Source of the DNA: Patescibacteria group bacterium | GTDB lineage: Bacteria; Patescibacteriota; Saccharimonadia; UBA4664; SCTI01 | Length of the DNA stretch: 64,000 bases | Assembly: GCA_004297735.1 (NCBI GenBank) | Contig: SCTI01000002.1 | Span: forward strand, 256,160-320,159 | Direction of reading: 5' to 3' | In this document: positions 28,570 through 53,419 of the stretch, piece after piece | How the letters are laid out: each line of letters begins with the position of its first letter | Position numbering within the stretch: the first letter of the stretch is position 1 | The notes under the pieces: model-generated | Database searches by the model: none | The model's input: only the letters and a program-made list of their open reading frames with translations | What the model was told of the DNA's origin: nothing | Translations under genes and position numbers: made by a program

Positions 28570-28662
28570 TGGCGGAGAGGGAGGGATTCGAACCCTCGCG
28601 GGAGATTGCTCCCCCCTACCGGTTTAGCAAACCAGCCCCTTCAGCCACTTGGGTACCTCTCC
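28570..28662 (-). tRNA. tRNA-Ser (anticodon GCU)
   Basis: The minus-strand sequence is GGAGAGGTACCCAAGTGGCTGAAGGGGCTGGTTTGCTAAACCGG...GGGTTCGAATCCCTCCCTCTCCGCCA, with a long variable arm. Confidence 0.85.
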
Positions 28663-28702
28663 GTGTTGGTGGCTACAACCGATGATTATACGCAAAAAAG
28701 TC

Positions 28703-29617
28703 CTATCTGGGAACAGTGTTGTCTTGGTATTCGGGCGTTTGGTAACGGTCAGGATAGTAAAGATCCATAATCTGATAAGCAAATTTTGGGTTGGCGCCCC
28801 TTTTGATAAAGTTTTTCTTAATGTCATCTTCAATTTCTTTTGGAGTTGGAGGCTCCTCGCCTTCTCGATAAGGACGATAATTATCCATGGCATCAAACTT
28901 ATCACCAGCTTCAAGAAACTGCTGCAAAATTCTAATCTTTTTGCGATCCTCTTTACTGTGGATACCTAAATCAACCATTACCGATTCAGCGTCACTTGAG
29001 GACAAGGTGGGGTATTCTTGAAGCTGGTGATGTAGAGCTACCAGAGCTAAGATTCGGGGATCATCTACTGGGTGCTCCCGCTGTAAACGCCTTACACTTA
29101 GCAGGGGATGGGAGTGGAGCTTAACTTTTTTACGCTCATCAGATTTAAACCGTCGCTTTACCTGGTGAGCCAAAACCATTTCGTCAGTTAGATTGCCTTT
29201 TTTGTCATTTTGTTGAAGTTTTGGCAGATCGAGCTTGCCGATATCGTGCAGGAAGCCTGCTTGAGCAAGAATCTTAATGTCCTCAGCTGTTATTCCCTCT
29301 AGGTGACGGTTGATCCAGGCTAATGCTACAGCATTCTGGGTTACTCCCATGGTATGCTCATGGGTTTCTGGGTCTAGCTTTTTTAGGTCTGCTAAGTGAA
29401 AACGAGTTTCTGGACGATGAAGGGCGTGCTCATATAGAGTGTACGGCTCCCGCGGAAGAACCATGTGTCTTTCGTCCCCCTCGCCTTCAACTCTTGGAGA
29501 ACTTCCGCCAAGCTGCTGCTCAAGCTGGCGGAGGGAATCAGATTTATCACGCTCTTCTAATGGAGAATGGAACTTGGATTCTTCTGATTCTTCGGGGTGA
29601 ATAAGTAATTCTGGCAT
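28703..29617 (-). CDS. HD-domain metal-dependent phosphohydrolase
   Basis: The HD motif is LAQAGFLHDIGKLD. The start is set at the internal ATG (MPELLIHPEE) because the ORF-track start (29746) runs into tRNA-Ser(CGA). Confidence 0.75.
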   Translation of the reverse strand: MPELLIHPEESEESKFHSPLEERDKSDSLRQLEQQLGGSSPRVEGEGDERHMVLPREPYTLYEHALHRPETRFHLADLKKLDPETHEHTMGVTQNAVALAWINRHLEGITAEDIKILAQAGFLHDIGKLDLPKLQQNDKKGNLTDEMVLAHQVKRRFKSDERKKVKLHSHPLLSVRRLQREHPVDDPRILALVALHHQLQEYPTLSSSDAESVMVDLGIHSKEDRKKIRILQQFLEAGDKFDAMDNYRPYREGEEPPTPKEIEDDIKKNFIKRGANPKFAYQIMDLYYPDRYQTPEYQDNTVPR

Positions 29618-29662
29618 AGCGGTTGTGCTTTCTATGCTCAGTATACCGCATCTAATAAGTCC

Positions 29663-29752
29663 TGGCGGAGAGGGTGGGATTCGAACCCACGATACCCTTT
29701 CGGGCATACCGCTTTTCGAGAGCGGCGCCTTCAACCACTCGGCCACCTCTCC
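29663..29752 (-). tRNA. tRNA-Ser (anticodon CGA)
   Basis: The minus-strand sequence is GGAGAGGTGGCCGAGTGGTTGAAGGCGCCGCTCTCGAAAAGCGG...GGGTTCGAATCCCACCCTCTCCGCCA. Confidence 0.85.
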
Positions 29753-29769
29753 AGGTGGGGCTGGGGCAA

Positions 29770-29795
29770 GGTCCGACCCGGCAAAAGGTCCGACC
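29770..29795. repeat. two copies of GGTCCGACC palindromic motif, 17 bp apart, between tRNA genes
   Basis: The sequence is AAGGTCCGACCCGGCAAAAGGTCCGACCTCTTT. Confidence 0.6.
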
Positions 29796-29808
29796 TCTTT
29801 ATAATTCC

Positions 29809-29885
29809 TGGCGCGCTCGGCAGGATTCGAACCTGCGACCTCCAGTACCGCAAACTGACGCTCTATCCAGCTGAGCTACGAGCGC
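29809..29885 (-). tRNA. tRNA-Arg (anticodon read as GCG; should be confirmed)
   Basis: The minus-strand sequence is GCGCTCGTAGCTCAGCTGGATAGAGCGTCAGTTTGCGGTACTGGAGGTCGCAGGTTCGAATCCTGCCGAGCGCGCCA. The D-arm is Arg-type. The anticodon loop reads TTGCGGT. Confidence 0.8.
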
Positions 29886-29940
29886 ACGTACCAAGGAATT
29901 AACTGCTAAAGATTAGCACAAATCAGGTGTGGTGAAAAGC

Positions 29941-30603
29941 CTAAAACCGGAGGTAGCGAGTTAGGCTTTCAATCCAATCGGGATCGCGATCGACTCGCGG
30001 CAAATGCTGGCTCAGAATTTGATCGATTGTTTGAATGTCATCATTTTCGCAAATAAGGGTCAGGCGGGGAACAAAGCGCTTGATTGGCTCGAGGTCAACG
30101 CTGTACCAGCCGGTGTCCTGCATCACGCTATAGGAGTGAAAGGAGGAGTAGGCGGTGATGTTGCCATGGATATTGACCCCGCTTGCATCTAGCTGGTAGC
30201 TGAGGGTTCGTGGCTGCTTACGGGAGTAGATCATAACTGCGAGCGCCATAACCACCACCACAGCAATACTCAGCCACTGCTGAAAAAAGCCCAGTACTGC
30301 AGCAATTATGGCTGTGGCAAGCCATAAACCCAAATACCAAAAGGCCGGCTTTTGGTGGTAAATATACTCGGAGGCCTCCCAGGTATAGCTTTGGGGGAGG
30401 TTAGGGTCAACGACCGGAGCGGCTGGAGGAGGAGGGGTGGCTGCTGGTTTATCGCCCTCGGGTTGAGGCTGTGCTTCCGGTTGGGGAGCTGGAGCCGATG
30501 GGGGAGTTGGCGGCTGCGGAACGGGTGGTACAGCTGGAGTCGGTGGGGTCGGGAGGGGTGGCACCGGAGTAGGGTTATTTGGTTGTCCGGTTTGTGGATC
30601 CAC
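29941..30603 (-). CDS. hypothetical membrane protein with Pro-rich N-terminus
   Basis: The N-terminal 70 aa are a PxP/PPxP low-complexity tract. Two TM helices follow, then a C-terminal globular domain. Confidence 0.5.
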   Translation of the reverse strand: MDPQTGQPNNPTPVPPLPTPPTPAVPPVPQPPTPPSAPAPQPEAQPQPEGDKPAATPPPPAAPVVDPNLPQSYTWEASEYIYHQKPAFWYLGLWLATAIIAAVLGFFQQWLSIAVVVVMALAVMIYSRKQPRTLSYQLDASGVNIHGNITAYSSFHSYSVMQDTGWYSVDLEPIKRFVPRLTLICENDDIQTIDQILSQHLPRVDRDPDWIESLTRYLRF

Positions 30604-30668
30604 GCTCGCCTCATTTAGGTTATCTTTATTATAACTGTTGGCGGTGAGCTGGCAATGAGCTAAAATGA

Positions 30669-30710
30669 GGTCCGACCCGGCAAAAGGTCAGACCTTCAGC
30701 TAGGTCAGAC
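30669..30710. repeat. three tandem copies of GGTC(C/A)GACC palindromic motif, 16-17 bp period, upstream of tRNA-Ser(UGA)
   Basis: The sequence is GAGGTCCGACCCGGCAAAAGGTCAGACCTTCAGCTAGGTCAGACCTCT. Confidence 0.6.
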
Positions 30711-30718
30711 CTCTACGC

Positions 30719-30808
30719 GGAGGGGTGGCCGAGTGGTTGAAGGCACTGGTCTTGAAAACCAGCAGGCCCGAAAGGGTCTCGTGGGTTCGAATCCCACCTC
30801 CTCCGCCA
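30719..30808 (+). tRNA. tRNA-Ser (anticodon UGA)
   Basis: The sequence is GGAGGGGTGGCCGAGTGGTTGAAGGCACTGGTCTTGAAAACCAG...GTGGGTTCGAATCCCACCTCCTCCGCCA. Confidence 0.85.
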
Positions 30809-30927: not shown

Positions 30928-31167
30928 ATGAGTAATCTAACCAATAAAACCACTATTTATCTTGATGCTTCTGTGAAGAAATTTATGCAGCATAAAGCTG
31001 TAGCTGAGGGGCGCTCGGTGTCTGAAATTGTTAATGAACAGTTTGCCGACATGATGGAGGACTTACACGACATTAAGGTTGTCCATGAGCGGCGCAATGA
31101 GCCGACATACCCATTTGAAAAGGTTATGCAGGAGCTCGGTATAACCTATGACCAGTTACGAGATTGA
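30928..31167 (+). CDS. type II antitoxin (RHH/DinJ-like) of RelE/ParE pair
   Basis: The 79-aa product has an N-terminal beta-strand plus helices (TIYLDASVKKFMQHKAVAEGRSVSEIV) and an acidic C-terminus. It overlaps the toxin gene by 20 nt. Confidence 0.75.
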   Translation: MSNLTNKTTIYLDASVKKFMQHKAVAEGRSVSEIVNEQFADMMEDLHDIKVVHERRNEPTYPFEKVMQELGITYDQLRD

Positions 31168-31411
31168 GTTCACCAAAAGCGCTCAAAAGGAGTTATCTAA
31201 GCTACCTTCAAAAACCCGTCTCCGAATAGCAAAGGCCATTTATCAACTGCGAGAGAATCCTCGAACCGGCAACACTCGCTCCATGGTGGGCATACCAAGT
31301 TGGCGACTCCGAGTTGGTGATTACCGTGTGGTATATGACATTACCGATCAAAAACTTACTATTTTGGTGGTGAGGGTACGTCATCGTCGCGATATTTATA
31401 AGCAGCTTTAG
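31148..31411 (+). CDS. type II toxin, RelE/ParE family
   Basis: The 87-aa product reads ...LSKLPSKTRLRIAKAIYQLRENPRTGNTRSMVGIPSWRLRVGDYRVVYDITDQKLTILVVRVRHRRDIY, the classic RelE/ParE fold signature. Confidence 0.85.
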   Translation: MTSYEIEFTKSAQKELSKLPSKTRLRIAKAIYQLRENPRTGNTRSMVGIPSWRLRVGDYRVVYDITDQKLTILVVRVRHRRDIYKQL

Positions 31412-32609: not shown

Positions 32610-32628
32610 GATTTATTAATCGACCATT

Positions 32629-32656
32629 AAAAAAGAGCCTTAACGGCTCTTTTTTA
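32629..32656. terminator. bidirectional rho-independent terminator between hsp20 and pilin array
   Basis: The sequence AAAAAGAGCC-TTAAC-GGCTCTTTTTT forms a hairpin with an A tract before and a T tract after. Confidence 0.7.
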
Positions 32657-32672
32657 ATTACTGAGCTTAAAC

Positions 32673-33104
32673 TTAGCTAGTTGGGCTAGCGGTTAATGAA
32701 CCGGTGACAAAACCGACCACGGCGTAGGCCAAAATAGCGACTACGATACCAACGATTGAGTAAATGATGGTGTTTTTAGCAGCGGTTACTTGGTCGGAGT
32801 TACCGGATGAAATCACGTACCGGAATCCACCGTAAATCAACATGATAACCGAAACAGCACCCACCAAGAAGATGAGGATGTTTGAGATTTGCGAGAAGAC
32901 GCCGTTGGCGCCAAACAAGCTGTCGGCACTACTGGTACCCTTGGAGCAGTCTACGCCCTGATTGATCGTGGAGTTGGCCGGATCAATGGTGGCGGGGCAG
33001 TCCGGGCCGGCGGCACCCATGGCGGTGGCTGGCAAAAAGGTGCTAGCAACCACACTGGCGCGCAGGGCGGTGTGTGCAATTGGATTTGATGTTAGTGATT
33101 TCAC
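32673..33104 (-). CDS. VirB2/TrbC-like pilin paralog 1 (signal peptide + variable Cys-loop + C-terminal hydrophobic hairpin)
   Basis: Signal peptide ...LPATAMG|AAGPD. The variable region has Cys pair DCPATIDPANSTINQGVDC. The conserved core is NILIFLVGAVSVIMLIYGGFRYVISSGNSDQVTAAKNTIIYSIVGIVVAILAYAVVGFV, two hydrophobic helices joined by a short polar loop. Confidence 0.6.
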   Translation of the reverse strand: MKSLTSNPIAHTALRASVVASTFLPATAMGAAGPDCPATIDPANSTINQGVDCSKGTSSADSLFGANGVFSQISNILIFLVGAVSVIMLIYGGFRYVISSGNSDQVTAAKNTIIYSIVGIVVAILAYAVVGFVTGSLTASPTS

Positions 33105-33182
33105 AAGTCTATTCCTGCTTAATGCTTATACTTAGTTTCTGAGGCGAGTATATACCATCTGGCCTTCAGGTTGCAAATCTGT

Positions 33183-33590
33183 CTAGCCCAGAGCGCCTAC
33201 AACAAAGTTGACGACCGCGTAGGCCAAGATTGCAACCACAATCCCGATGATGGCATAGAGGATGGTACTTTTAGCGTCCTCAACGTTCTTGGAGTTACCG
33301 GCGGATGTAACATACCGGAACCCACCGTAAATCAGGGCGATGACAGCCACGGCCCCAACCAAGAAGAGAACGGTGTTGGTAATGTCGCGGAATGATGTAG
33401 TAAGGTCGGCTGGAGTGGTACCCTTAAAGTCAGTGCCAGCACCCTCGCCAGGACGGGACGATTGCGCCCCTTGCTTAATTGGCGATACAGGCTCGTCAGC
33501 AAAAACAGCCGGTGTGTATGCTGTTAATATCGCAGCCGCCATTAAAAGTTGATGTTTTGCCTTACGAAACACAATTATCCTCCTAACCAA
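33183..33590 (-). CDS. VirB2/TrbC-like pilin paralog 2
   Basis: Signal peptide ...PAVFA|DEP. The core is VLFLVGAVAVIALIYGGFRYVTSAGNSKNVEDAKSTILYAIIGIVVAILAYAVVNFVVG. This paralog has no Cys pair. Confidence 0.6.
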   Translation of the reverse strand: MVRRIIVFRKAKHQLLMAAAILTAYTPAVFADEPVSPIKQGAQSSRPGEGAGTDFKGTTPADLTTSFRDITNTVLFLVGAVAVIALIYGGFRYVTSAGNSKNVEDAKSTILYAIIGIVVAILAYAVVNFVVGALG

Positions 33591-33981
33591 TTCTACTTAT
33601 GATGAAGTTTACTATAGCGTAAGCCAGAATTGCCACCACCAGACCGGTTATAGCATAAATGATGGTATGCTTGGCGGCCTCAATTTGGGCAGAATTACCG
33701 GTTGAGGCAACGTAGCGGAATCCACCGTAAATCAAGGCGATAACTGCGATAGCTCCAACCAAATAAAGCAGGACGTTGGAAGCTGTACGAAAGGTTTTCT
33801 TGAGTGAGTCATCGGAGGTACCTGGGCTACCACTGCAAGAATTACCTCCACCAATGTTCGCCCCATTACAAATCTCGCTTTCGGTAGTGGCATGAGCTGC
33901 AGGAGCAACAGTCACAGCGACTGGCGCAGAAAAAATAAGCGCCAAGAACACAATATGCAGAGAAGCAATAAATCGTCTCAT
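33583..33981 (-). CDS. VirB2/TrbC-like pilin paralog 3
   Basis: Signal peptide ...AAHA|TTES. Cys pair ICNGANIGGGNSC. The core is VLLYLVGAIAVIALIYGGFRYVASTGNSAQIEAAKHTIIYAITGLVVAILAYAIVNFI. It overlaps paralog 2 by 8 nt. Confidence 0.6.
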   Translation of the reverse strand: MRRFIASLHIVFLALIFSAPVAVTVAPAAHATTESEICNGANIGGGNSCSGSPGTSDDSLKKTFRTASNVLLYLVGAIAVIALIYGGFRYVASTGNSAQIEAAKHTIIYAITGLVVAILAYAIVNFIISRIG

Positions 33982-34352
33982 TAGAATAAACTCCCAATCA
34001 CAAAGCCAACGATCTGTCGTGCCAACAGCGCTACAATTAGGCCGGTAACGGCGTAAACAATGGTGTTTTTAGCCTGCTTAATCCGATCTTGGTCGCCGGT
34101 AGAAGTGACATAACGTACCGCGCCTATTAGCAGAGCAATGACAGCAAGCGCGCCAACTAGGAAGAAAACCGAGTTGAGAATGTTTCCCAGGGCACCCTCA
34201 AATCCGCTCTTGTCACAAGGGGCACCAGCTGCACTGGCGCCTTTGCAGGCTGGACTCGGAGTATCTTCTGCCAAAGCGGCGAGGGGGGAGGATAAGACGG
34301 CTACTTGAACCGCAACCGTTACAGCAAGTAATTTTTTATTTAATGGCTTCAT
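33981..34352 (-). CDS. VirB2/TrbC-like pilin paralog 4
   Basis: Signal peptide ...ALA|EDT. Cys pair CKGASAAGAPC. The core is VFFLVGALAVIALLIGAVRYVTSTGDQDRIKQAKNTIVYAVTGLIVALLARQIVGFV. It overlaps the neighbouring genes by 1-4 nt. Confidence 0.6.
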   Translation of the reverse strand: MKPLNKKLLAVTVAVQVAVLSSPLAALAEDTPSPACKGASAAGAPCDKSGFEGALGNILNSVFFLVGALAVIALLIGAVRYVTSTGDQDRIKQAKNTIVYAVTGLIVALLARQIVGFVIGSLF

Positions 34353-34792
34353 TGCCCTAATGTTCCAATTACAAATCCAATAATAACACGTGCTAAAGCT
34401 ACCACCACCAGGCCAGCTACAGCGTAGGTAATGGTTTTTTTAGCCGATTCAACTCGGCCTCTATCGCCAGTTGAGGTTATGTAGCCGATTCCACCTATAA
34501 CCAGAAAGACAACCGATACCAGTCCGCCAATATAGATAAAGGCGTTGGTGAGGGTAGTAAGGTAGGCCGGCGTGCCGTCCTCTTGATTTTGAAGGTCACC
34601 AGCTTTGGTGCAGCCGGCCACGTCGCCACCAGCCTTCTTAATGTCCTCGCAAGCCGGCTTGGTAAGCAGGTCGGAGGGAGTGGCGGCTTGCGCTGTGTCC
34701 ATATGTAAAACTTGAGGCATTGCCACTACCGCCACGACGGCTAGCACAAGAGTGATAATTCCGGTAAGTATAAGCCGTTTCATGGCTTGCAT
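34349..34792 (-). CDS. VirB2/TrbC-like pilin paralog 5
   Basis: The start is the internal ATG (MQAMKRLILTG...), since the longer ORF-track start at 34855 would overlap paralog 6. Cys pair CEDIKKAGGDVAGC. The core is FIYIGGLVSVVFLVIGGIGYITSTGDRGRVESAKKTITYAVAGLVVVALARVIIGFV. Confidence 0.55.
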   Translation of the reverse strand: MQAMKRLILTGIITLVLAVVAVVAMPQVLHMDTAQAATPSDLLTKPACEDIKKAGGDVAGCTKAGDLQNQEDGTPAYLTTLTNAFIYIGGLVSVVFLVIGGIGYITSTGDRGRVESAKKTITYAVAGLVVVALARVIIGFVIGTLGQ

Positions 34793-34820
34793 TGTATCTG
34801 ATGTCAGATGGGGTGTAAAG

Positions 34821-35258
34821 TTAGCCCGACGGACTACTGGCAATAACAAAGCCAACTATTGCTCCGGCGGTAATTGACACAACCAGACCAATAATGGCGT
34901 AGGTTATGGTATTTTTGGCACTTTGAATCTTTCCGCTATCCCCATTGGAGCTGGAGTATTTAATTCCACCAATAACAAGGTAAATTACCGATAGGGCACC
35001 GGCAACAGTCGACAACACACCCACAGCGGTTTTAGCAATATTACTTAAGCTAATAACAGGTATTCCGAGTGGGTCATGAGACCTCTCGCCAGCTGGCTTT
35101 TGCGAAGGGGAGTCGAGACAGTTTTTATAGTCTGCATCCTTACAGCCAGTGATGCTTTCGGCAGCCATGGTTGGCTGAAAAGAAAAACCGAGAGCTACGA
35201 TAAGAGTAGTCGCTAAAGTTAGGCCTGTTGCAAAACGCTTGAGCTTCATACTGATCAT
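34821..35258 (-). CDS. VirB2/TrbC-like pilin paralog 6
   Basis: Signal peptide ...TMA|AES. Cys pair CKDADYKNC. The core is LSTVAGALSVIYLVIGGIKYSSSNGDSGKIQSAKNTITYAIIGLVVSITAGAIVGFV. Confidence 0.6.
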   Translation of the reverse strand: MISMKLKRFATGLTLATTLIVALGFSFQPTMAAESITGCKDADYKNCLDSPSQKPAGERSHDPLGIPVISLSNIAKTAVGVLSTVAGALSVIYLVIGGIKYSSSNGDSGKIQSAKNTITYAIIGLVVSITAGAIVGFVIASSPSG

Positions 35259-35283
35259 CCTATCTCATTTAGACATTGCTATG

Positions 35284-35607
35284 CTAGTCGAACTGCCGAA
35301 CAAGGTATTCAACAATAAGGTATGAGCCGCTAGCCAAAATAAGACCTAGCACCGCGTAGGTGATGGTATTTTTAGCTTCGGAAACCTTTCTAGGGTCACC
35401 CTGCGAGGTGATGTATTGAATACCTGCCCAGGTCACAATAATAACGGCTACCACGCCGCACAGAGTAGTTATTAGTTGGATGGCGTTGGCCAACAAAATT
35501 CCAAAAACATCAATATTATCAAACTTAGGTGGATTGGACAGACCATTATATAGACTAGGCAGGACATCGCGGCGATCCTGATCGGCCAATTTAACGATTA
35601 AACTCAT
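35284..35607 (-). CDS. VirB2/TrbC-like pilin paralog 7 (no obvious signal peptide)
   Basis: The core is LCGVVAVIIVTWAGIQYITSQGDPRKVSEAKNTITYAVLGLILASGSYLIVEYL. The N-terminal 40 aa are hydrophilic, with no signal peptide. The start overlaps the stop of paralog 8 by 4 nt. Confidence 0.5.
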   Translation of the reverse strand: MSLIVKLADQDRRDVLPSLYNGLSNPPKFDNIDVFGILLANAIQLITTLCGVVAVIIVTWAGIQYITSQGDPRKVSEAKNTITYAVLGLILASGSYLIVEYLVRQFD

Positions 35608-36053
35608 CTAAACACCTTTGCCCCTTCTGGTAGCAGAAACTGCAGAATTGAGAACATAAGTAAGTATAGAACCAAACCAGTAACCGCTCCCTTTAATCTA
35701 TCTTTAGCCCCTTGAACCTGACTTGAGTCTCCGGCGGAGATAACATACTGGAATCCAGCTATCGCCACTATTAGTATGAGAATGAGGCCAAAAATAGCAC
35801 TAAACCAGCGAATGGCAGCAGATAAAAAGGCGAAGATAGGGTTTTGCGAACTGTCGCCAATGCACTCGTCGCCCAGGGTGTGGTTAGGGGTCCCGCTCTT
35901 ATCCCTGCCATTCCATATTGTACTAACCGGCACCCCACCTTTATCTTTACAGGCTTTTTGCAAATCGGTATCAGCATAGGCTGGCGCGCTAAAGCTGCCA
36001 AGCATTGTGACTAGCATGGCGGGAACCATAAGAATGAGAGCAAGTCGTTTCAT
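35604..36053 (-). CDS. VirB2/TrbC-like pilin paralog 8 (first gene of minus-strand array)
   Basis: Signal peptide ...APAYA|DTD. Cys pair CKDKGGV...DEC. A divergent core is FSAIFGLILILIVAIAGFQYVISAGDSSQVQGAKDRLKGAVTGLVLYLLMFSILQFLL. Confidence 0.55.
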   Translation of the reverse strand: MKRLALILMVPAMLVTMLGSFSAPAYADTDLQKACKDKGGVPVSTIWNGRDKSGTPNHTLGDECIGDSSQNPIFAFLSAAIRWFSAIFGLILILIVAIAGFQYVISAGDSSQVQGAKDRLKGAVTGLVLYLLMFSILQFLLPEGAKVFR

Positions 36054-36142
36054 CTGCGCCCATTCTATAAACCTAAAGCATATCCTGTCAAAGCTAACGC
36101 TTATTGAAGATGGTGCAATTCAGGTAGAAATCTATTAAACTT

Positions 36143-38602
36143 ATGCTTATGAAGGTGGGTATTTACAAAAGATTTTCAATCGCCCTTATTTTAATTGCAG
36201 CGACTGCTAGCCTTGGCTTGCCATTTTTTAGTGAACCTGCTCATGCCGCCAGTGAAAGCTACCTATTCTTTTTTAAGGATGGTGACAAGAGTGATGTTCA
36301 AAAAGGGCTAGACGGCAAAACGGACCTAGATCGAAACAACCTCACAAAAACAACCGTTTACATAAAGGATGGCATTTTTGGGGATAATAAGGTGCCTTTA
36401 TATTATGATTCCTCCGGATCATCGGTAGCAGGAAAGCCGCGTTATACAACCACTTATTACTGCTTTAACAATAAGCCGGTGACTTCACTGCCCCCAAATC
36501 AAGCAATCCCTTCTTACCAGACCATTGAATTAACTGCAACGATCACGGGGAGTCCAGATGTTACAAAGAGTGGTATAAGCTCTCATATTTTACCAGCAAA
36601 ACTAAGCTATGATGCCACTTATATAGGAACGGGTCCCGGTTCAGTCCCTCGCTCCTGTCTACCTTCAGCCGTCAGTCCGAGTAGTAGTCAAGGTAGTGTG
36701 GGCTTAGAAAACTATAATCAGCTTACGTCCGGCGGCAAAAGAGCGTGGGGTAGCCTACAGACGAGTACTGAGGCTAGTGCCGCCTCCAACCCAAGCACAA
36801 GTGCTGGCACTGGAGAGGATGACGACGAGCCAACCTGTCAATCCGAAGGCGGCGCATTAGCCTGGGTTTTCTGCCCAATGATTGAAATAATTCATGACAC
36901 TGTTGGCAAGATGATGAAGGATTTCATTCTTAACCAACTAGAATATGACCCCCTGAGCGTCGTACCGGGCGACGGAAATACAGCGGCAAATAATTTATAC
37001 AACGTGTGGGGCAACATCCGTGCTCTTGCCAATATACTGTTTGTGCTAATCTTCTTGTTCATTGTATTTGCTAACACGGTCGGTATGAATATCAATGCCT
37101 ACACCGTTAAAAAAATGCTGCCCCGTCTGGTCGCTGCGGTTGTACTGGTTCAGGTTTCATTTATTATCTGCTCCTTAGTTATTGATGCTGGAAATATAGC
37201 CGGACAAGGACTAGGTAGCCTTATAACCACCGCTCTTCCAGGCGCAGTAACCGAAGGGGCGGGTAGTGGAATTGGGGTAGGCTGGTCGGTTTTGAGTGGA
37301 GCTATTTTAGCCATTTTAGCGGTGGTCATCATTACAAAAATTGGTATTGCTGCGGTTCTTTTACTCGCATTAGGAGCGTTTTTCTCGGTTTTGTCGGTGG
37401 TTATAACGCTAATACTGCGCGACCTCATTATTAGCGTACTAGTAATTACCTCGCCACTTGCCTTTGCCGCCTGGGTCCTGCCAGGAACTGAGAAAATATT
37501 TAAAACTTGGTGGCGATTGTTTGTTCGCATAATTGTAATGTACCCAATGATTGTGCTGCTGTTTTCAGTGAGTAGCGTTCTGTCGGCAGCCAGCGCCGGT
37601 ACCACCGGAACGGCCGGTTTTGTTCAATCGGTTATCGCTGGAATATTCCCAATTATTGCCTTCTTTATGGTGCCATGGACCTTTAAGTGGGCCGGTGGCG
37701 CCATGGCAATGACGGCGGGTTATGTGGATGGCTGGACTAGCCGAGCAGGCGCGGCAACCGACAGAGGTCTTAGGAATAGCAAGCCCTACCAAGCTAACCA
37801 GCAGCGCCTCCAGGCACGGCGCGATTTAAGAAGCAGCCAGAAGCTCGGAAATCAATTAGGTAGCAGTAATGCTGCCAGGAGGGCCTGGGGAACTTTTATG
37901 GCTACGGGGGCGCCATTTGGGGGAAGGCTTAACCCAAATGGTGGATGGGGCAAAACAAGTCCTGCGGTTCAGCAAAAAGCCGATGACGCATTAAAGCAAG
38001 CCCGGGAAACCGCCCAAAATAATCTCCAGAACACCGGCACACAAGACCTTAAAGATAAGTTTGCAGCAACCGATGCTAGCGGCAAACTCAAGAACAAGAC
38101 AATGGGTGTGGCAGCAATTGGTGAGCTTGCAAAGCGGGGTCAGCTTACCAGTCAACATTTGGCGGCAATTCAAAAGACGTACGGAGCTGGCAGCCGTGAG
38201 GCAGGAATAGCCATGAAGTATGCACAGGGTCAGATGAGTGATAAGGCTAAAGATAATCACCCAATTTTGGCTTATGCGGACGCCGGCGCCAAGATTGATG
38301 CTGCCGGTAACTTTACCGAAATCAGCAAGAGCACTCATGACAGAATCACACAGAACACCTCTCCAAAATCGCTTGGTAGTCTGACTCAGCAGGGCCTGGC
38401 GGACATGCTGAACGCCACTGTTAAAGATGAAAAAGGCAACGACATGACATATACAGATAGTCGAGGAAATACTCGGAAGAGAAATGGCTTAGATGCTGTA
38501 GCCACGCACACCCTAAATGCCGCGGTTAATGATCCGAAGATTACTCGCAACATGCATCCAGACGTCCTTCGTGACCTTAGGGCTGAAGCGAGGAATCGCT
38601 AA
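36143..38602 (+). CDS. VirB6/TrbL-like polytopic membrane protein with large N- and C-terminal hydrophilic domains (paralog A)
   Basis: The 819-aa product has a signal peptide and a Ser/Thr-rich ~250-aa extracytoplasmic domain. The central block has at least 6 TM helices (ANILFVLIFLFIVFANTVGMN...LVAAVVLVQVSFIICSLVIDAGN...). The charged C-terminal tail is about 300 aa. It is transcribed divergently from the pilin array. Confidence 0.65.
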   Translation: MLMKVGIYKRFSIALILIAATASLGLPFFSEPAHAASESYLFFFKDGDKSDVQKGLDGKTDLDRNNLTKTTVYIKDGIFGDNKVPLYYDSSGSSVAGKPRYTTTYYCFNNKPVTSLPPNQAIPSYQTIELTATITGSPDVTKSGISSHILPAKLSYDATYIGTGPGSVPRSCLPSAVSPSSSQGSVGLENYNQLTSGGKRAWGSLQTSTEASAASNPSTSAGTGEDDDEPTCQSEGGALAWVFCPMIEIIHDTVGKMMKDFILNQLEYDPLSVVPGDGNTAANNLYNVWGNIRALANILFVLIFLFIVFANTVGMNINAYTVKKMLPRLVAAVVLVQVSFIICSLVIDAGNIAGQGLGSLITTALPGAVTEGAGSGIGVGWSVLSGAILAILAVVIITKIGIAAVLLLALGAFFSVLSVVITLILRDLIISVLVITSPLAFAAWVLPGTEKIFKTWWRLFVRIIVMYPMIVLLFSVSSVLSAASAGTTGTAGFVQSVIAGIFPIIAFFMVPWTFKWAGGAMAMTAGYVDGWTSRAGAATDRGLRNSKPYQANQQRLQARRDLRSSQKLGNQLGSSNAARRAWGTFMATGAPFGGRLNPNGGWGKTSPAVQQKADDALKQARETAQNNLQNTGTQDLKDKFAATDASGKLKNKTMGVAAIGELAKRGQLTSQHLAAIQKTYGAGSREAGIAMKYAQGQMSDKAKDNHPILAYADAGAKIDAAGNFTEISKSTHDRITQNTSPKSLGSLTQQGLADMLNATVKDEKGNDMTYTDSRGNTRKRNGLDAVATHTLNAAVNDPKITRNMHPDVLRDLRAEARNR

Positions 38603-38697
38603 AAGCCGACTTACCTTAACCCGCTTATCCTTGTATCTGTACACCAGATGGGATACGATGTTCTATTCGTCTTTGTATAAAGGTAGAGCAAATTATC

Positions 38698-41010
38698 ATG
38701 CAGACAATCAGGCGAGCAGTACTGGCGGCGCTGCTGGCATACACCATGCTGATCGGTATTATTGGACCGCTCAGCCAGATGTCGTTGACCGCTGGTGCCA
38801 AGCCCGCGGCTTTTAGCATTGGTAAGCCCGCCTACGCCGCCACCGCGCAAGAAGCATGTAGCTCTTATACGGGCAAAGATAAGTCTGCCTGCGAGTCCGG
38901 GTACAGGGGTGGCGATGACGGTAAGACCCGTTCTGAAACTTGTGACAGGTATGCCAATAGCAATCAAAGTGCCTTAGCCTGCTCGGCTGGATTTGATGCG
39001 GCGTTGATGTTGCACAATGGTAATCCAACCACCACTAGTTCAAATGGCGAGTCTGGCTCAACCGATCGCGAAGAGGGCTGCGCTAAGGCTCAGGGGCCAG
39101 CGGCTTGGTTTACCTGTCCAATGTTTGATCGCATCACCAACTTTATGGTTGAGGGCGGCCAAGAGATTATTAGGCAGTTCTTGGTAATTGAGCCGCTTAA
39201 GTTTGAGGGTCCAATGTATGACACCTGGAATACGGTTCGTACGCTTACAAATGTGCTGTTTGTATTGATCTTTTTGGTGGTTATATTTGGCAACACAGTC
39301 GGTATGAGCGCCTACCATATTCGCAGCATGATACCAAAGTTGGTTGTGGCGGTTTTACTGGTGCAAGCATCATTCTTAATCACCGCGGTAGGGGTTGATA
39401 TTGGCAACATTCTTGGAGCTGGGGTGGTTCAGTTGATATCGGGCGTAATGAACCATGGAGCGACCGTTAGCGGGCCCAGTGGTGACGCCTTAGCGGGTAA
39501 CCTCTTTTTAGCGGCCGGGTTGGTTGTTTTGGTAACAATCGGGTGGGAGATTGCCGGACCTTTGTTGCTATTGGTGTTTTTGAGCGCCATCGCCATGATT
39601 GTAACTTTAGCTTTTCGCTACTTTTTAATTGGCGTACTGATTGTTGTTTCTCCGCTAGCCTTCGCGGCGATGGTGTTGCCAGGAACAGAACAGTACTTTG
39701 ACCGCTGGCGCAGCACTTTTATTAGACTTATTTTAATGTACCCAATCATCATGGCGTTACTGGCTCTGGCCGCAAATGTAGGGGCATTAATGCCGGTGTC
39801 GGCTGACAGTGGTGCGTTTGGCGGCGATGCCGCCCAAGCCCTGGCGCCAATTGTAATTAAGGTCTTGGTTTTAATTGCCTGTTTTTCGGCCGTACCAATG
39901 ACCTTTAAGTGGGCCGGCGGTTTTATGGAGCTGGCTGCCAGTCGGATAGATGATATTCGCAAGGGCGGTCACCGCGCGGTTAGAGGTAGCGATGCGTGGA
40001 AGGCGGGGCGTCACCGTCAGGCTAGTCGGGCGGCCAACCGGGCCGATCGAGCGGCGGCGTTTGCCAACGAAGGAGCCGGTAAAAACATTTTTGGCCGCGA
40101 CAACTCGGCCAGCAGGTTCTTACAGGGGGCCTTGGTTGGAGTGGCTGGTGCGTCGGCAGGTGGCGGCCTGGATGGCGCTCTAACACGGGAACGACGCAAG
40201 CAAGCGGCCATTGGTAAAATTATGGATGACTTTAAGAGTCTGAACGTGTCGCGCGGAGACAAGCAAAAGCTGGTGGCGGCCCGGTCTAAGCGAGAGGTGC
40301 CGGCCAGCCTGCAGCCTTACTACTCAACACTTGGGCAAGCGGCGGCGTTTCGTTCGCTCAACAAGGATAAGGCCCGGGGTGAGGCGGCGAGCAGTGAGGC
40401 GGCTCTGGCGGCAATGGCGGTTACCGCCGAAGGAAAGCGGCGAGCCGAAGAGATTCGCAAGCTGGCCTACCAAGGTGAAGGCGGAGCAATGTATGGCGCC
40501 GACCCGGCTCTGGCTAATGGTGGTCTGGGCGGTAAACAAGCGCTTAAGCCCGGTTCTGGTAGCAAGATTAAATCGAGCGATGTAGCTGGCATTATGTCGA
40601 ATGTTGATTCGGTCCGCCGCAACTTTGGCCACAGCCTGAGTGGTGGGGTAGAAAAAGCCACCCGTCAAATGGGAGCGGTTAATGCAGCAGGCAAGGTAAC
40701 CGGCCCCGATTTTGTTGAGCAGCACTTGCAGGCCCACGGCCTGGTTGGCGGTCTGGCCACCGACTTAAGTGTTCAGGCCTTTAAGGACTCCTTAAAAGGT
40801 CGGCATTTCTCGGAGACATCGGGTGATGCTAGACGTGAGATGAAGGACGTATTAACCAATGCCGAAGCTGGCCGGCGAATTATGGTGCTGCAAAACTTTG
40901 AGGCGAGCTTGCGGGCAGCTGGTCGCACCACCGAAGCCAACGAGGTACAACGGCGCCATACCAATCTGCAAAACCTACGTAACGAAGCCAATACTTTAAT
41001 TACCGACTAA
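38698..41010 (+). CDS. VirB6/TrbL-like polytopic membrane protein (paralog B)
   Basis: The 770-aa product has the same architecture, and its TM block aligns with paralog A (TNVLFVLIFLVVIFGNTVGMS...LVVAVLLVQASFLITAVGVDIGN...WAGG). Confidence 0.65.
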   Translation: MQTIRRAVLAALLAYTMLIGIIGPLSQMSLTAGAKPAAFSIGKPAYAATAQEACSSYTGKDKSACESGYRGGDDGKTRSETCDRYANSNQSALACSAGFDAALMLHNGNPTTTSSNGESGSTDREEGCAKAQGPAAWFTCPMFDRITNFMVEGGQEIIRQFLVIEPLKFEGPMYDTWNTVRTLTNVLFVLIFLVVIFGNTVGMSAYHIRSMIPKLVVAVLLVQASFLITAVGVDIGNILGAGVVQLISGVMNHGATVSGPSGDALAGNLFLAAGLVVLVTIGWEIAGPLLLLVFLSAIAMIVTLAFRYFLIGVLIVVSPLAFAAMVLPGTEQYFDRWRSTFIRLILMYPIIMALLALAANVGALMPVSADSGAFGGDAAQALAPIVIKVLVLIACFSAVPMTFKWAGGFMELAASRIDDIRKGGHRAVRGSDAWKAGRHRQASRAANRADRAAAFANEGAGKNIFGRDNSASRFLQGALVGVAGASAGGGLDGALTRERRKQAAIGKIMDDFKSLNVSRGDKQKLVAARSKREVPASLQPYYSTLGQAAAFRSLNKDKARGEAASSEAALAAMAVTAEGKRRAEEIRKLAYQGEGGAMYGADPALANGGLGGKQALKPGSGSKIKSSDVAGIMSNVDSVRRNFGHSLSGGVEKATRQMGAVNAAGKVTGPDFVEQHLQAHGLVGGLATDLSVQAFKDSLKGRHFSETSGDARREMKDVLTNAEAGRRIMVLQNFEASLRAAGRTTEANEVQRRHTNLQNLRNEANTLITD

Positions 41011-41065
41011 CTCCTTACCGGTCGACAACCATAACCATTTTTTATAAGATAGGGTCAGGAGAGGT

Positions 41066-42010
41066 ATGGGCACATATAAGGTTCCACAGAACGTTGAGGC
41101 CGAGGATAAAATCCTAGGGCCGTTGTCGCTCAAGCAGTTCATTTATGCACTGATTGGCTTGGCGTGGGGCTTTTTAACCTTCGCGCTGTTTCGCCAGGTG
41201 ATTGTGCTGTGGGTTTTAATTGGTATTCCACCGGCACTTTTCTTATTGGCGCTTGGACTCTACCAGAAAGAGGATCAGCCGCTTGAGACCTTTGTAATTG
41301 CCATTTTCCAGTTCCTGGTTAGACCAAAGACCAGACTATGGCACAAGGAGCCAATTGCCGAGGTGTTTCGCCTAGAGCCACCCCCACCCAAGGCCGAGAT
41401 CGCTCACCGAGATCCACGCGAAGTTAGGGGACAGCTGCAGCGTTTAGCCGAGCTGGTTGATACACGAGGTTGGTCGGCCAAGCAGCCAGAGCTACAAGAG
41501 GCGGGGGACGAAGCTCCGGTAATCGACTTAATGGACCGGATTGGTGCCGGTGCGCTGGTGCCACAACAAACCCCTTCACTGGGTGGAGCAGCGGTACTAA
41601 CTCCAGCGCCAGCCGGCATGGTGGCGGCACCCGCTACTACCGACGCCCCCGCCGCACCTAATCCTGGCGACCCAGGTATTACCGAAGAAGATGACATCTT
41701 GGCCGAAGGTGGCCAGGTCAGCCAAAACCTTAACACGCTGATTCAAAACAGCGTTAAAAGTATGCGCGCCGAAGCGGTTGAACGCATGAAAAAACCGACC
41801 GCTCCGGTTGCAGCGAAAAAGGTTTCGCCCACCACTCCAAGCACAAGCGGATTAACAGCGCCTCTATCTGGTGATATACTTAAGCTAGCAACTGAAGGTG
41901 GAGATCTGACGGTGGCTCAAATTGCCGCTCAGGCTCACAGGAAACAAGATTTAGTAGAGGGTCAAACGGTACAAGTTCGGAATGGCAACACCACAACCAC
42001 AACCAGCTAA
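41066..42010 (+). CDS. VirB3-like membrane protein with long Pro/Ala-rich C-terminal region
   Basis: The N-terminal two-TM hairpin is LSLKQFIYALIGLAWGFLTF...VLWVLIGIPPALFLLALGLY. Its pattern and its position immediately upstream of VirB4 are VirB3-like. It overlaps the next ORF by 29 nt. Confidence 0.5.
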   Translation: MGTYKVPQNVEAEDKILGPLSLKQFIYALIGLAWGFLTFALFRQVIVLWVLIGIPPALFLLALGLYQKEDQPLETFVIAIFQFLVRPKTRLWHKEPIAEVFRLEPPPPKAEIAHRDPREVRGQLQRLAELVDTRGWSAKQPELQEAGDEAPVIDLMDRIGAGALVPQQTPSLGGAAVLTPAPAGMVAAPATTDAPAAPNPGDPGITEEDDILAEGGQVSQNLNTLIQNSVKSMRAEAVERMKKPTAPVAAKKVSPTTPSTSGLTAPLSGDILKLATEGGDLTVAQIAAQAHRKQDLVEGQTVQVRNGNTTTTTS

Positions 42011-42734
42011 AAAGGGCCCAAAAAAGAACGGGACCCAGGACACCATTTTAATTTCGGAGATCCGAGATGGAATTGTGGTGATGCGTGATGGCAGCTTACG
42101 GGCCGTAGTTATGGCCAGCGCAATTAACTTCGACTTAATGAGCCCTCAAGAACGCGACTCGGTTGAGTACGCCTACCAGAGCTTTTTAAACTCGCTTCAC
42201 TTTCCAGTTCAGATCCTAATTAAGTCACAGAAGCTCGATTTAGATAACTACATCGCCAAACTGGCTCAGCTGCGCCAAGACCAAGACAACGATTTGCTCG
42301 GTCTACTAATGGACGACTACATTGCCAACATTCAATCGCTGGTTGACGAGGTGAACATCATGGATAAGCAGTTCTATGTGGTGGTTCCGTTCTTCCCGCC
42401 AGCAATGACCAAGGTTAAGAAGGGTAATTTGGCTACCGGCTTAATGGGTGCCTTAAAACAGCAAGACGTAACCACCGTAAACGAAACCGATTTTGCGGCG
42501 TTTAAGGAAGAGTTAACCCAGCGGGTTCAAATGGTATCATCGGGACTCAGTCAGATGGGGGTACGCAACATTCCACTTAACACCCAGGAGCTAATTGAGC
42601 TTTATTACAGCAGCTACAACCCAGATGTGGCCCAAAACCAGCGCTTAACCGAAGCAGCGCAGCTGCAAACCGCCGCGGTCACCAAGGGTGAGGGGCAGGC
42701 TCCAACTCAACTAGCTCAAGGAGGACCTTTCTAG
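41982..42734 (+). CDS. VirB4/TrbE/CagE-family ATPase, N-terminal domain ORF (split gene or frameshift)
   Basis: The 250-aa product reads ...DTILISEIRDGIVVMRDGSLRAVVMASAINFDLMSPQERDSVEYAYQSFLNSL..., the conserved VirB4 N-terminal (CagE_TrbE_VirB) pattern. Its stop TAG overlaps the GTG of the next ORF by 1 nt, in a different frame. Confidence 0.7.
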   Translation: MATPQPQPAKKGPKKNGTQDTILISEIRDGIVVMRDGSLRAVVMASAINFDLMSPQERDSVEYAYQSFLNSLHFPVQILIKSQKLDLDNYIAKLAQLRQDQDNDLLGLLMDDYIANIQSLVDEVNIMDKQFYVVVPFFPPAMTKVKKGNLATGLMGALKQQDVTTVNETDFAAFKEELTQRVQMVSSGLSQMGVRNIPLNTQELIELYYSSYNPDVAQNQRLTEAAQLQTAAVTKGEGQAPTQLAQGGPF

Positions 42735-44644
42735 TGGGGCTTTTTGGTAAAAAACCAGATCAAGATCCGGTAGCGCTGGCCGAAGCCCAGCGGTTACGCG
42801 AACAACAAGAAGCCGAGGCGATCTACCGCCAGGGCATTGTGAGTCTACGCGACCTAATCGCGCCTCCATCACTCGAAATTGCTGGCGACCACCTGCGAGT
42901 AGGCACCCGGTTTGCTCGTACCTTATACGTGTACGGTTACCCGCGACAGATTTACACCGGCTGGTTGAGCCCAATCATCAACCTCGATGAGGTGCTCGAC
43001 ATCAGTATGTTTATCTACCCGGTTGAGAGCCAGGTGGTTCTAAACAACCTACGCCGAAAGGTGGGTCAGCTCGAAGCCAGCTACGCCATCAACCAAGAAA
43101 AGGGGAGGGTTCGTGACCCAGCCCTAGAGGCAGCCATTCTCGATGCCGAAGAACTACGTGACAAGCTGCAGGTGGGCGAGGAGCGATTCTTCCGCTTTGG
43201 ACTTTACGTTACCATCTACGGCGATAGCATGGATGAGATTAAAAATGTTCAACGAAAACTTGAGGGAATCTTTGGTCAGTCGCTGGTATACAGTAAGCCG
43301 GCCAGCATGCAAATGGAGCCAGGCTTTAACTCAACCCTGCCGATGGCTAACGACCAGCTTCAGGTTAGCCGCAACATGAACACCGGGGCGCTATCGACCA
43401 GCTTCCCATTTACCTCGGCCGAACTCAGCCACAACGAAGGCGTGCTTTACGGCGTCAACCGTCACAACAACGGCTTGGTTTTGTTTGACCGCTTTACGCT
43501 CGAAAACGCCAATATGGTGGTATTCGCTAAGTCCGGTGGCGGTAAGTCGTTTGCGGTTAAACTAGAGGCCTTGCGCAGCTTAATGATCGGTACCGAGGTA
43601 TTGGTAATCGACCCCGAAAACGAGTATCAAACCCTGTGCGAAGCGGTTGGTGGTAGCTATTTGCGACTGAGCCTAGCCTCACAGAACCGCCTTAACCCGT
43701 TTGATCTACCGCACGTACTCGATAGCGAGGATGCCGATAACGCCCTGCGGGCCAACATCATCACCCTGCACGGCCTGCTACGGCTAATGATGGGTGGTGA
43801 CGCCGCGCCGCTCAGCCCGGCCGAAGACGCCGACTTAGATGTGGCCATTATTAATACCTACGCAAAGGCCGGTATTACTAACGATCCGCTAACTCATAGC
43901 GCCACGCCACCAACCATGAATGACCTTCATAAAACTTTAAGTGAGATGAGTGGAAACGGTCCGTCATTGGCCCAGCGCTTACGCAAGTACACCACCGGCA
44001 CCTTTGCTGGAATCTTTAGTGAGCAGTCCAACGTTGATTTGTATAACAAGTTCGTGGTGTTTAATATTCGCGACCTCGAAGACGAGCTGCGCCCGGTCGG
44101 TATGTACATTGTGCTCAACTACATCTGGAACAAGGTTAAATCCGACAAGCGCCGGCGTATCTTGGTGGTTGATGAGGCCTGGCAGTTAATGAAGTATGAA
44201 GATTCGGCCAACTTTATGTTTAGTATTGCCAAGCGAGCCCGTAAATACCAGCTGGGCCTAACCACGATTTCGCAGGACGTTGATGACTTTTTGAGCTCAC
44301 GTATGGGTCGAGCGGTGGTCAGTAACTCTTCGCTACAACTTCTACTTAAGCAAGCGCCGTCTTCGGTCGACATTGTGGGTGAGACCTTTAAGCTGACTAG
44401 CGAGGAAAAGAGCCGGTTGACCAGTTTTCCGGTGGGCGAGGGGCTGTTCTTTGCCGGGTTGAACCATGTGGTTATGCGAATTTTGGCCTCCCAAACCGAG
44501 AGCCAGTTGATTACCACCAGCCCGCAACAGGTGGCAGCCCAGCAGGCGGCCCAGCAGTATCAACAGGAGGCCCAACAAGCGGCTCCTCCACCGGCAAGCC
44601 AACCACTGGAGACAGGAGAGCAGGAGCTAAACAGTGCCGGTTGA
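42734..44644 (+). CDS. VirB4-family ATPase, C-terminal NTPase domain ORF
   Basis: Walker A is FAKSGGGKSF and Walker B is RILVVDEAWQLM. The VirB4-type C-terminal motifs are present. The start is GTG. Confidence 0.85.
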   Translation: MGLFGKKPDQDPVALAEAQRLREQQEAEAIYRQGIVSLRDLIAPPSLEIAGDHLRVGTRFARTLYVYGYPRQIYTGWLSPIINLDEVLDISMFIYPVESQVVLNNLRRKVGQLEASYAINQEKGRVRDPALEAAILDAEELRDKLQVGEERFFRFGLYVTIYGDSMDEIKNVQRKLEGIFGQSLVYSKPASMQMEPGFNSTLPMANDQLQVSRNMNTGALSTSFPFTSAELSHNEGVLYGVNRHNNGLVLFDRFTLENANMVVFAKSGGGKSFAVKLEALRSLMIGTEVLVIDPENEYQTLCEAVGGSYLRLSLASQNRLNPFDLPHVLDSEDADNALRANIITLHGLLRLMMGGDAAPLSPAEDADLDVAIINTYAKAGITNDPLTHSATPPTMNDLHKTLSEMSGNGPSLAQRLRKYTTGTFAGIFSEQSNVDLYNKFVVFNIRDLEDELRPVGMYIVLNYIWNKVKSDKRRRILVVDEAWQLMKYEDSANFMFSIAKRARKYQLGLTTISQDVDDFLSSRMGRAVVSNSSLQLLLKQAPSSVDIVGETFKLTSEEKSRLTSFPVGEGLFFAGLNHVVMRILASQTESQLITTSPQQVAAQQAAQQYQQEAQQAAPPPASQPLETGEQELNSAG

Positions 44645-47552: not shown

Positions 47553-47554
47553 GC

Positions 47555-52010: not shown

Positions 52011-52016
52011 AATGCC

Positions 52017-53138: not shown

Positions 53139-53419
53139 ATCCTCAGGTTCTTATTAGTATACTTTAATTTTTTAAATAGATTGAAGTGGTAGTAGGGCCT
53201 GGGGAAACCGGGGAAGTTGAATAATTTTAGTGTTCTTAAGCCAAAATACTTATGTTCATCTTGGTGAAAACCCGGGAAAACCATGCTTAAAACGGTTGTG
53301 ATTAAATTTGGTTTTTGGGTAAAAAAGTTACTACTTAAATTTAATCTGCGGATAATATTTTTATTATTCAAAGCCTGTACCATAGTTTGCCCCCTATCTT
53401 TCCCCATGATATCCCCAGC

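Follow-up and report, generated by a model that had tools for sequence, protein, structure and literature searches.

Why should a single secretion locus carry eight different genes for what appears to be one kind of pilin? The question is raised by a stretch of 64,000 nucleotides (nt), the whole of which is called the window here, from a Patescibacteria group bacterium of the Saccharimonadia (assembly GCA_004297735.1, contig SCTI01000002.1, positions 256,160 to 320,159). Saccharibacteria need a chromosomal type IV secretion system (T4SS) to live on host bacteria, and, apart from theirs, no T4SS has to our knowledge been reported as essential to the growth of its carrier. An earlier note, made from the letters of the window alone, described a tandem array of eight VirB2/TrbC-like pilin paralogs beside such a system, considered the arrangement unusual, and offered a multi-pilin filament, host-range variation or immune evasion as its possible meaning. 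In the present analysis, the paralogs were found to be ancient, position-fixed and under purifying selection, and they probably form a heteromeric assembly of non-redundant parts.

The listing of open reading frames (ORFs) confirmed that positions 32673-36053 are filled by eight consecutive, back-to-back minus-strand ORFs, which are numbered here in the direction of transcription, with lengths in amino acids (aa), predicted signal peptides and scores in bits:

35604-36053, minus strand: pilin 1, 149 aa, signal peptide, Cys pair; PF18895 35.0
35284-35607, minus strand: pilin 2, 107 aa, short and leaderless; PF18895 42.1, PF04956 24.6
34821-35249, minus strand: pilin 3, 142 aa, signal peptide, Cys pair; PF18895 37.5
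34349-34783, minus strand: pilin 4, 144 aa, signal peptide, Cys pair; PF18895 53.0
33981-34352, minus strand: pilin 5, 123 aa, signal peptide, Cys pair; PF18895 50.1, PF04956 26.0
33583-33981, minus strand: pilin 6, 132 aa, signal peptide, Cys pair; PF18895 48.8; modeled with AlphaFold2
33183-33572, minus strand: pilin 7, 129 aa from GTG 33572, signal peptide, no Cys; PF18895 46.3
32673-33104, minus strand: pilin 8, 143 aa, weak signal peptide, Cys pair, 'SLFG..GVF' motif; PF18895 41.8

All eight proteins passed the T4SS_pilin profile PF18895 (35.0-53.0 bits against a gathering cut-off of 26.6 bits), in agreement with the precomputed matches on the same genes, and the array is therefore not a product of chance. 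Profile scans of Pfam and NCBIfam brought no other family to its cut-off for these proteins. The TrbC/VirB2 profile PF04956 was approached from just below its threshold by four of them (21-26 bits; best 26.0) and not matched by the other four, and 40 of 70 members of the family matched it at E<1e-3; judged from these profiles, the tie of the pilins to PF04956 is one of superfamily level only. The profile NF045849, which describes a pilin-like protein of Mycoplasma integrative and conjugative elements (ICEs), was matched below its cut-off by all eight over the two-helix module (28.9-38.3 bits, E 7e-7 to 8e-10).

Alignment of the eight proteins bore out the shared C-terminal module, for which the consensus LVGAVAVIxLxIGGFRYVTSxGDSxxVxxAKNTIxYAIxGLVVAILAYAIVGFV was obtained, with seven invariant columns (G, Y, S, G, A, K and G) and a conserved loop motif, RYxxSxG(D/N)...AK, while the N-terminal half aligned poorly. 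Each module contained two hydrophobic segments of at least 19 residues. The AlphaFold2 model of pilin 6, which is 100% identical to the NCBI hypothetical protein EPO04_03215 of a "Patescibacteria group bacterium" metagenome-assembled genome, showed a helical hairpin (helices 56-92 and 97-131, pLDDT >85); the mean pLDDT, from a 70-sequence alignment, was 75, the leader and variable segment being of low confidence. Fold searches with the hairpin did not discriminate between families, the hairpin fold being generic, and a sequence profile search of PDB gave weak transmembrane matches only (MacB, CydC) and no solved pilin. The proteins thus correspond to the general description of VirB2-like subunits, being small and having a short polar loop between two transmembrane helices, and their genes adjoin those of VirB6, VirB3 and VirB4 homologues. 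Hence, the VirB2/TrbC-like identity proposed in the earlier note is almost certainly right, and we regard the eight proteins as VirB2-family T4SS subunits.

The N-terminal parts were less uniform than had been described. Inspection of hydropathy, charge and AXA-like sites revealed a clear signal-peptide-like N-terminus in six of the eight proteins and a weak one in pilin 8, while pilin 2 was found to be without any N-terminal hydrophobic region, so that a Sec-type signal peptide cannot be ascribed to all of them. Likewise, a hypervariable region of 40-70 aa results only when the leader is included, the mature paralog-specific segment being ∼20-45 aa long. This segment carries a Cys pair in six of the eight pilins, spaced by 8-29 residues, which suggests a disulfide-stapled surface loop.

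The relationship of the paralogs to one another was evaluated against the syntenic eight-gene arrays of two related metagenomic genomes, one represented by L081-L083 and the other, more distant, by L084. The protein identity matrix was strictly diagonal, each of the eight pilins having a one-to-one positional ortholog: same-position identity was 70-87% with L081 and 43-87% with L084, as against 25-53% for off-diagonal pairs and 27-48% between paralogs within the window. The duplications are therefore older than these lineages, in line with the old diversified family that the earlier note had supposed. With L081, identity ranged from 70% for pilin 3 to 87% for pilin 1. The last two genes were still 76% (pilin 7, the same value as in L081) and 87% (pilin 8) identical in L084; for pilin 8, the identity of 84-87% to its orthologs included the N-terminal part. 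Neither the identity matrix nor the nucleotide comparison gave any indication of homogenization, gene conversion or recent duplication among the paralogs, and the moderate nucleotide identity reported between them was reproduced, at 61-71% over a 175-nt conserved module in the last four genes. Between the window and L081, the N-terminal parts of orthologs were 66-88% identical and the conserved modules 82-90%. The ratio of nonsynonymous to synonymous divergence (omega) was 0.05-0.39 where the synonymous divergence (dS) was unsaturated; dS was saturated for most segments, and the omega values are to be read as rough upper bounds.

Is this arrangement peculiar to the window? A scan of one genome per species yielded 79 loci (L001-L079), almost all labeled Saccharibacteria or Saccharimonadia. 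The scan was seeded with a three-protein alignment, the full eight-protein alignment being too divergent, and the ORFs of the loci were then searched with a hidden Markov model of the window's C-terminal module. A tandem array was present in nearly every locus. In the 65 loci not cut by a contig end, the array size had a median of 6 and ranged from 1 to 10: 37 loci carried six genes, 13 carried seven, seven carried five, three carried four, two carried eight and one carried ten, and a single gene was found in two. The tandem layout near virB4 was present in 63 of these 65 loci. A tandem array is the rule in Saccharibacteria, with eight genes at the upper end of the sizes, and the claim that the arrangement is unusual does not hold. 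A short leaderless member occurs in most arrays, including SEML1_0016 of Southlakia epibionticum. In 40 of the 65 loci, though not in the window, one more pilin gene was observed ∼1.5-5 kb farther downstream, in the opposite orientation.

Arrays of this kind have been reported earlier. VirB2-like pilins were found in 1,948 Patescibacteria assemblies, with 441 arrays of 2-11 pilin genes, mainly in Microgenomatia and Saccharimonadia, a mean identity within arrays of 25% (maximum 54%) and a link to virB4/virB6 in 1135 assemblies (Quinonero-Coronel et al. 2025, PMC12102498). A row of predicted pilins in the T4SS cluster of S. epibionticum is essential (Wang et al. 2023, PMC10633639): each of SEML1_0014-0019, six PF18895 proteins of which one has 103 aa, was scored as growth-defect or essential in transposon sequencing (Tn-seq; PMC10633639 Table S1). 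VirB6-like genes border this row at one end and hsp20 at the other, dnaA-dnaN-recF lying at the distal end of the locus, and SEML1_0024, a seventh pilin encoded in the opposite direction, is non-essential (PMC10633639). The synteny of that locus is the synteny of the window. The array phenomenon is thus already published (PMC12102498, PMC10633639, PMC12857230), and the window is a further instance of it.

Reciprocal-best-hit communities were built over the 79 loci, and they contained one member per locus (71/71, 62/62 and 55/55), with preferred array positions and private motifs. A PGG-type C-terminal tail was present in 63 of 77 first-position proteins (orthogroup C3) and in at most one protein elsewhere; FPxWY was present in 45 of 71 second-position proteins and in none elsewhere. 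An LFG..G(I/V)F motif marked the terminal group and the opposite-strand group, the latter constituting a separate orthogroup (49 of 55 members with the motif) that is the counterpart of SEML1_0024. A Cys pair was found in most members of several orthogroups, with 92 of 122 in the central group. In the window, pilin 1 is a member of C3 with the C-terminal tail 'LPEG...F' of the first-position type; pilin 2 is the leaderless short type; pilins 3-7 are of the five Cys-pair/central types; and pilin 8, which belongs to the last-position orthogroup and was a reciprocal best match in 54 of 57 loci, is the terminal LFG type. No FPxWY member is present among the eight.

The gene starts and junctions were then considered. 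From reading of the sequence, a separate gene call on an identical Logan contig (L080) and the orthologs, the longest-ORF starts are likely wrong for three genes, the likely ones being GTG 33572, ATG 34783 and ATG 35249. The first, in pilin 7, sits 10 nt after AGGAGG and agrees with the L080 call; the second, in pilin 4, for which the longest ORF extends to TTG 34855, gives MKRL at the N-terminus, where the L081 and L084 orthologs begin with MKRL/MKTV; and the third, in pilin 3, has a further possible ATG upstream at 35258 but is supported by the L080 call. Overlaps of 1-8 nt between gene ends, as claimed earlier, were found at three junctions, namely pilin 1/pilin 2 (4 nt, ATGA), pilin 4/pilin 5 (4 nt) and pilin 5/pilin 6 (1 nt); at the remaining four, neighboring genes are 10-78 nt apart. 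The array is bounded by two putative transcription signals:

36062-36091, minus strand: promoter-like site TTGACA-18-TAGAAT, ∼9 nt upstream of the pilin 1 ATG, matching 11 of 12 consensus positions
32626-32658, minus strand: intrinsic terminator hairpin with A- and T-runs on both sides (bidirectional), between pilin 8 and the convergent hsp20

Both hexamers of the promoter-like site are kept in L081, and the hairpin has a minimum free energy of -18.4 kcal/mol (z = -5.4 relative to shuffled sequence). Ahead of pilin 1 and of pilin 4, the −10-like hexamers, identified by consensus match only, end ∼7-9 nt before the ATG, suggesting that transcripts from these sites are leaderless or near-leaderless. 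The eight pilin genes appear to be co-transcribed.

The eight genes very probably encode VirB2-superfamily subunits of a chromosomal Gram-positive-type (MPF-FATA-like) T4SS of the kind typical of Saccharibacteria. Since the paralogs are ancient, position-fixed, under purifying selection and apparently co-transcribed, they probably form a non-redundant heteromeric assembly. In such a system, six or seven pilins would be exported via Sec and lose their leaders, and the leaderless pilin 2 would insert straight into the membrane. Each pilin would rest there as a helical hairpin, with the polar R-Y-x-x-S-x-G-(D/N)...A-K loop predicted to be cytoplasmic and the paralog-specific N-terminal segment of 20-45 aa, often with its Cys pair, facing outward. 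The VirB4 ATPase and the VirB6 platform may draw the subunits out of the membrane and pile them up as a pilus-like tube, which would pass through the wall in the direction of the host cell; the conserved loop would face the lumen, and the outer surface would carry the paralog-specific segments. The paralogs would most likely represent a major subunit together with specialized minor, base or tip subunits, and not interchangeable variants. This scheme follows the published model, according to which VirB6 is the base for a stack of VirB2-like hairpins drawn out of the membrane, the loop pointing into the lumen and the two termini outward. In monoderms, PrgF of pCF10 is an essential VirB2-like protein, for which a pilus standing on a VirB6 pentamer, with the charged loop turned toward the lumen, has been modeled, and PrgF-like proteins occur in most Gram-positive conjugative plasmids (bioRxiv 10.64898/2025.12.18.695078).

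Several points weigh against this explanation. None of the eight pilins reached the cut-off of PF04956 (27.9 bits) or that of NF045849 (40 bits). The saturation of dS mentioned above loosens the estimate of selection, and BLAST reciprocal best matches to distant loci were noisy for pilins 2-7 because the conserved module dominates the score; the distant-locus BLAST was replaced by the comparison with close relatives and by the reciprocal-best-hit communities with motif checks. Promoter-like sites are in total no commoner than in shuffled sequence, and weak internal ones on the minus strand were found at 34791-34819 and at 33147-33176, the latter in the 78-nt gap before pilin 8; expression as a single operon is therefore not proven. 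The essentiality of upstream operon genes in Tn-seq can be polar on downstream genes. We know of no Saccharibacterium on which a pilus has been seen.

Another possibility is that the pilins are membrane-proximal components, lining a short stalk or channel through the wall or inserted into the host membrane, with no extended pilus. Several systems require VirB2 for the transfer of substrates whether or not a pilus is extended (PMC12857230), pili have so far escaped visualization on monoderm T4SSs (bioRxiv 10.64898/2025.12.18.695078), and the proteins are strongly hydrophobic hairpins. This proposal has the whole of the evidence in common with the pilus model and differs from it only in the length and location of the assembly, and no finding separates the two; we consider it unlikely, though with a real chance of being correct.

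That the genes encode interchangeable alternative major pilins, whose diversity serves host range or escape from host recognition, is improbable. A similar proposal exists for the VirB2 paralogs of Anaplasma and Bartonella, and for patescibacterial pilin arrays the idea of host-range variation has itself been published (PMC12102498). The low identity of the paralogs (27-48%), the concentration of their divergence in the surface-exposed N-terminal segment and the difference in array size between lineages, from 4 to 10, are what such a function would lead one to expect. Nevertheless, the ortholog of each paralog is far more similar to it than any paralog is, omega stays well below 1 for the N-terminal segments, which orthologs have kept, and neither gene conversion nor recent duplication was seen. 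Moreover, the orthogroups hold their positions throughout the class, the genes appear to make up a single operon, and all six genes of the orthologous array were scored essential in S. epibionticum. Antigenic variation of the Anaplasma/Bartonella type was accordingly set aside, given N-termini 66-88% identical between orthologs, omega values of at most 0.39 and a diagonal matrix. Ortholog conservation and the class-wide orthogroups thus favor fixed, non-redundant subunits over antigenic or host-range variation; of the functions offered in the earlier note, the multi-pilin filament fits best, and immune evasion or variation fits poorly with the conservation of the orthologs.

An unrelated holin, bacteriocin or immunity family that lies near the T4SS by coincidence is scarcely credible, as the generic hairpin fold and weak sub-threshold matches to several DUF membrane families are outweighed by the passing of PF18895 by 8/8, by the failure of any other family (holin, bacteriocin and immunity proteins included) to reach threshold, and by the tie of the array to virB4/virB6 in every related locus examined and in 1135 assemblies (PMC12102498).

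The array is divergent from a plus-strand T4SS operon that spans 36143 to 50699, with virB4 at a distance of 6.7 kb. The presence of VirB6, VirB3 and VirB4 homologues in this operon, as had been noted, was supported:

36143-38602, plus strand: VirB6-like a, 819 aa, first gene of the operon; precomputed PF19590 TrbL_3 match
38698-41010, plus strand: VirB6-like b, 770 aa; PF19590 precomputed on the L081 ortholog, weak TraJ (E 1.9e-4) and weak TrbL matches
41066-42010, plus strand: PrgI/VirB3-like protein, 314 aa; PF12666 at 52 bits against a cut-off of 27
41982-42734, plus strand: TrsD-like protein, 250 aa; NF041427 TrsD at E 2.6e-9, precomputed PF26593
42734-44644, plus strand: VirB4-type ATPase of the monoderm (CD1110) family, 636 aa; NF045971 at 369.8 bits (cut-off 325 bits), PF19044 at 98.7 bits
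44634-47552, plus strand: protein with no family match, 972 aa, in the position of SEML1_0007 by synteny with S. epibionticum
47555-49306, plus strand: cell-wall hydrolase with a putative VirB1-like role, 583 aa; SLT PF13406 and GDSL PF13472 above cut-offs, weak M23
49260-50699, plus strand: protein without a family match above cut-off, 479 aa

The precomputed PF19590 matches on the VirB6-like proteins were not reproduced by hmmscan of Pfam-A, even at E<=10, and neither was the precomputed PF26593 match on the TrsD-like protein. The latter protein (41982-42734) covers the N-terminal region of VirB4 models and the abutting ATPase covers 178-731 of the 752 positions of the CD1110 model; VirB4 appears to be split between the two. 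The two large VirB6-like paralogs lie side by side (36143-41010), as do SEML1_0013 and SEML1_0011 in S. epibionticum. VirB6-like a is the fastest-evolving gene of the locus, with 55% identity to L081 and 38% to L084, whereas VirB4, TrsD, HSP20, ValRS and VirB6-like b are 67-96% identical to their orthologs; with the exception of VirB6-like a, the neighboring proteins share 77-96% identity with L081. VirB6-like a may be a better candidate for host specificity than the pilins.

Directly after the T4SS operon, recF, dnaN and dnaA are located on the minus strand (50952-54811), and the T4SS therefore stands next to the replication origin, a position reported for Patescibacteria (PMC12102498). On its other side, the array is followed by hsp20, a ComF-type phosphoribosyltransferase and a toxin-antitoxin pair, ParE with a DUF6290-type antitoxin (30928-31411, plus strand), which lies three genes from the array and occupies the same place in L081 and L082. 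Farther out, three tRNA-Ser genes and one tRNA-Arg gene surround an HD-domain ORF at 28570-30808. The equivalent place in L081 (13581-18228) holds other genes, including those for a Phage_tail_C-domain protein and a 558-aa protein, and this is a variable spot between otherwise syntenic genomes. Neither a relaxase nor a VirD4-type coupling protein was found among the window ORFs scanned; the other ORFs in the scan were housekeeping ones (PolA, sigma-70, primase, GroEL, Mur ligase, FemAB, YidC and glycosyltransferases).

How does the locus compare with known systems? Its nearest counterparts are the published patescibacterial arrays and SEML1_0014-0019, with which it shares the PF18895 family and the tandem, divergent placement beside VirB6-like, PrgI, TrsD and VirB4 genes; with SEML1_0014-0019 it also shares the dnaA-dnaN-recF and hsp20 neighbors and the short leaderless member. 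In keeping with the published definition of such arrays (PMC12102498), at least two tandem pilin genes lie near virB4 with low intra-array identity, the 27-48% found here being similar to the reported mean of 25% and maximum of 54%. The window differs from the S. epibionticum array in carrying eight genes where six are modal, and in lacking both the FPxWY member and the opposite-strand pilin of the SEML1_0024 type.

The Gram-negative TrbC/VirB2 pilins (T-pilus, RP4, R388) have in common with the array the signal peptide (a predicted one in most of the eight pilins), the two hydrophobic helices with a short polar or charged loop, VirB3, VirB4 and VirB6 homologues as neighbors, and a weak but recurrent sequence similarity. 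The window differs from them in scoring below the PF04956 cut-off, in belonging to a monoderm organism and in having eight paralogs instead of one; in addition, no VirB5, VirB7, VirB9 or VirB10 was detected. PrgF of the Enterococcus plasmid pCF10 is, like the pilins, a membrane protein of small size with two helices, and its gene neighbors a VirB6-like one in a T4SS of the MPF-FATA type; it is leaderless, as is pilin 2, but present as a single copy per system. PrgF was rejected as an ancestor of pilin 2, there being no detectable similarity (hhalign probability 1.5%) and no PF18895 match in PrgF. The Mbov_0395 family (NF045849) of Mycoplasma ICEs is linked to all eight pilins through the two-helix module and connects them to monoderm conjugative elements, although the model has only 80 positions and covers that module alone, the scores are below its cut-off, and the Mycoplasma gene is not arrayed. 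Lastly, the VirB2 genes of Anaplasma phagocytophilum and Bartonella resemble the array as divergent tandem copies in a non-conjugative T4SS for host interaction; those copies are thought to act by antigenic variation, whereas the paralogs of the window are conserved one-to-one under purifying selection.

The locus adds no new kind of system. What is new is the positional orthology, together with class-wide subunit types bearing private motifs, which narrows what the pilin series builds. With a little less than even confidence, we propose that it is a heteromeric filament or conduit of at least five ancient, position-fixed subunit types (first-position PGG-tail, FPxWY, leaderless short, Cys-pair and terminal LFG), each with its own exposed N-terminal module and together without a counterpart among the known single-pilin conjugative pili. 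If this is true, lineage-specific gain and loss of subunits (eight here, with no FPxWY), or possibly the fast-evolving VirB6-like a, would tune the interaction with the host. The one-to-one conservation speaks for a structure of several fixed subunits more than for antigenic or host-range variation, and it points to the subunit types of interest.

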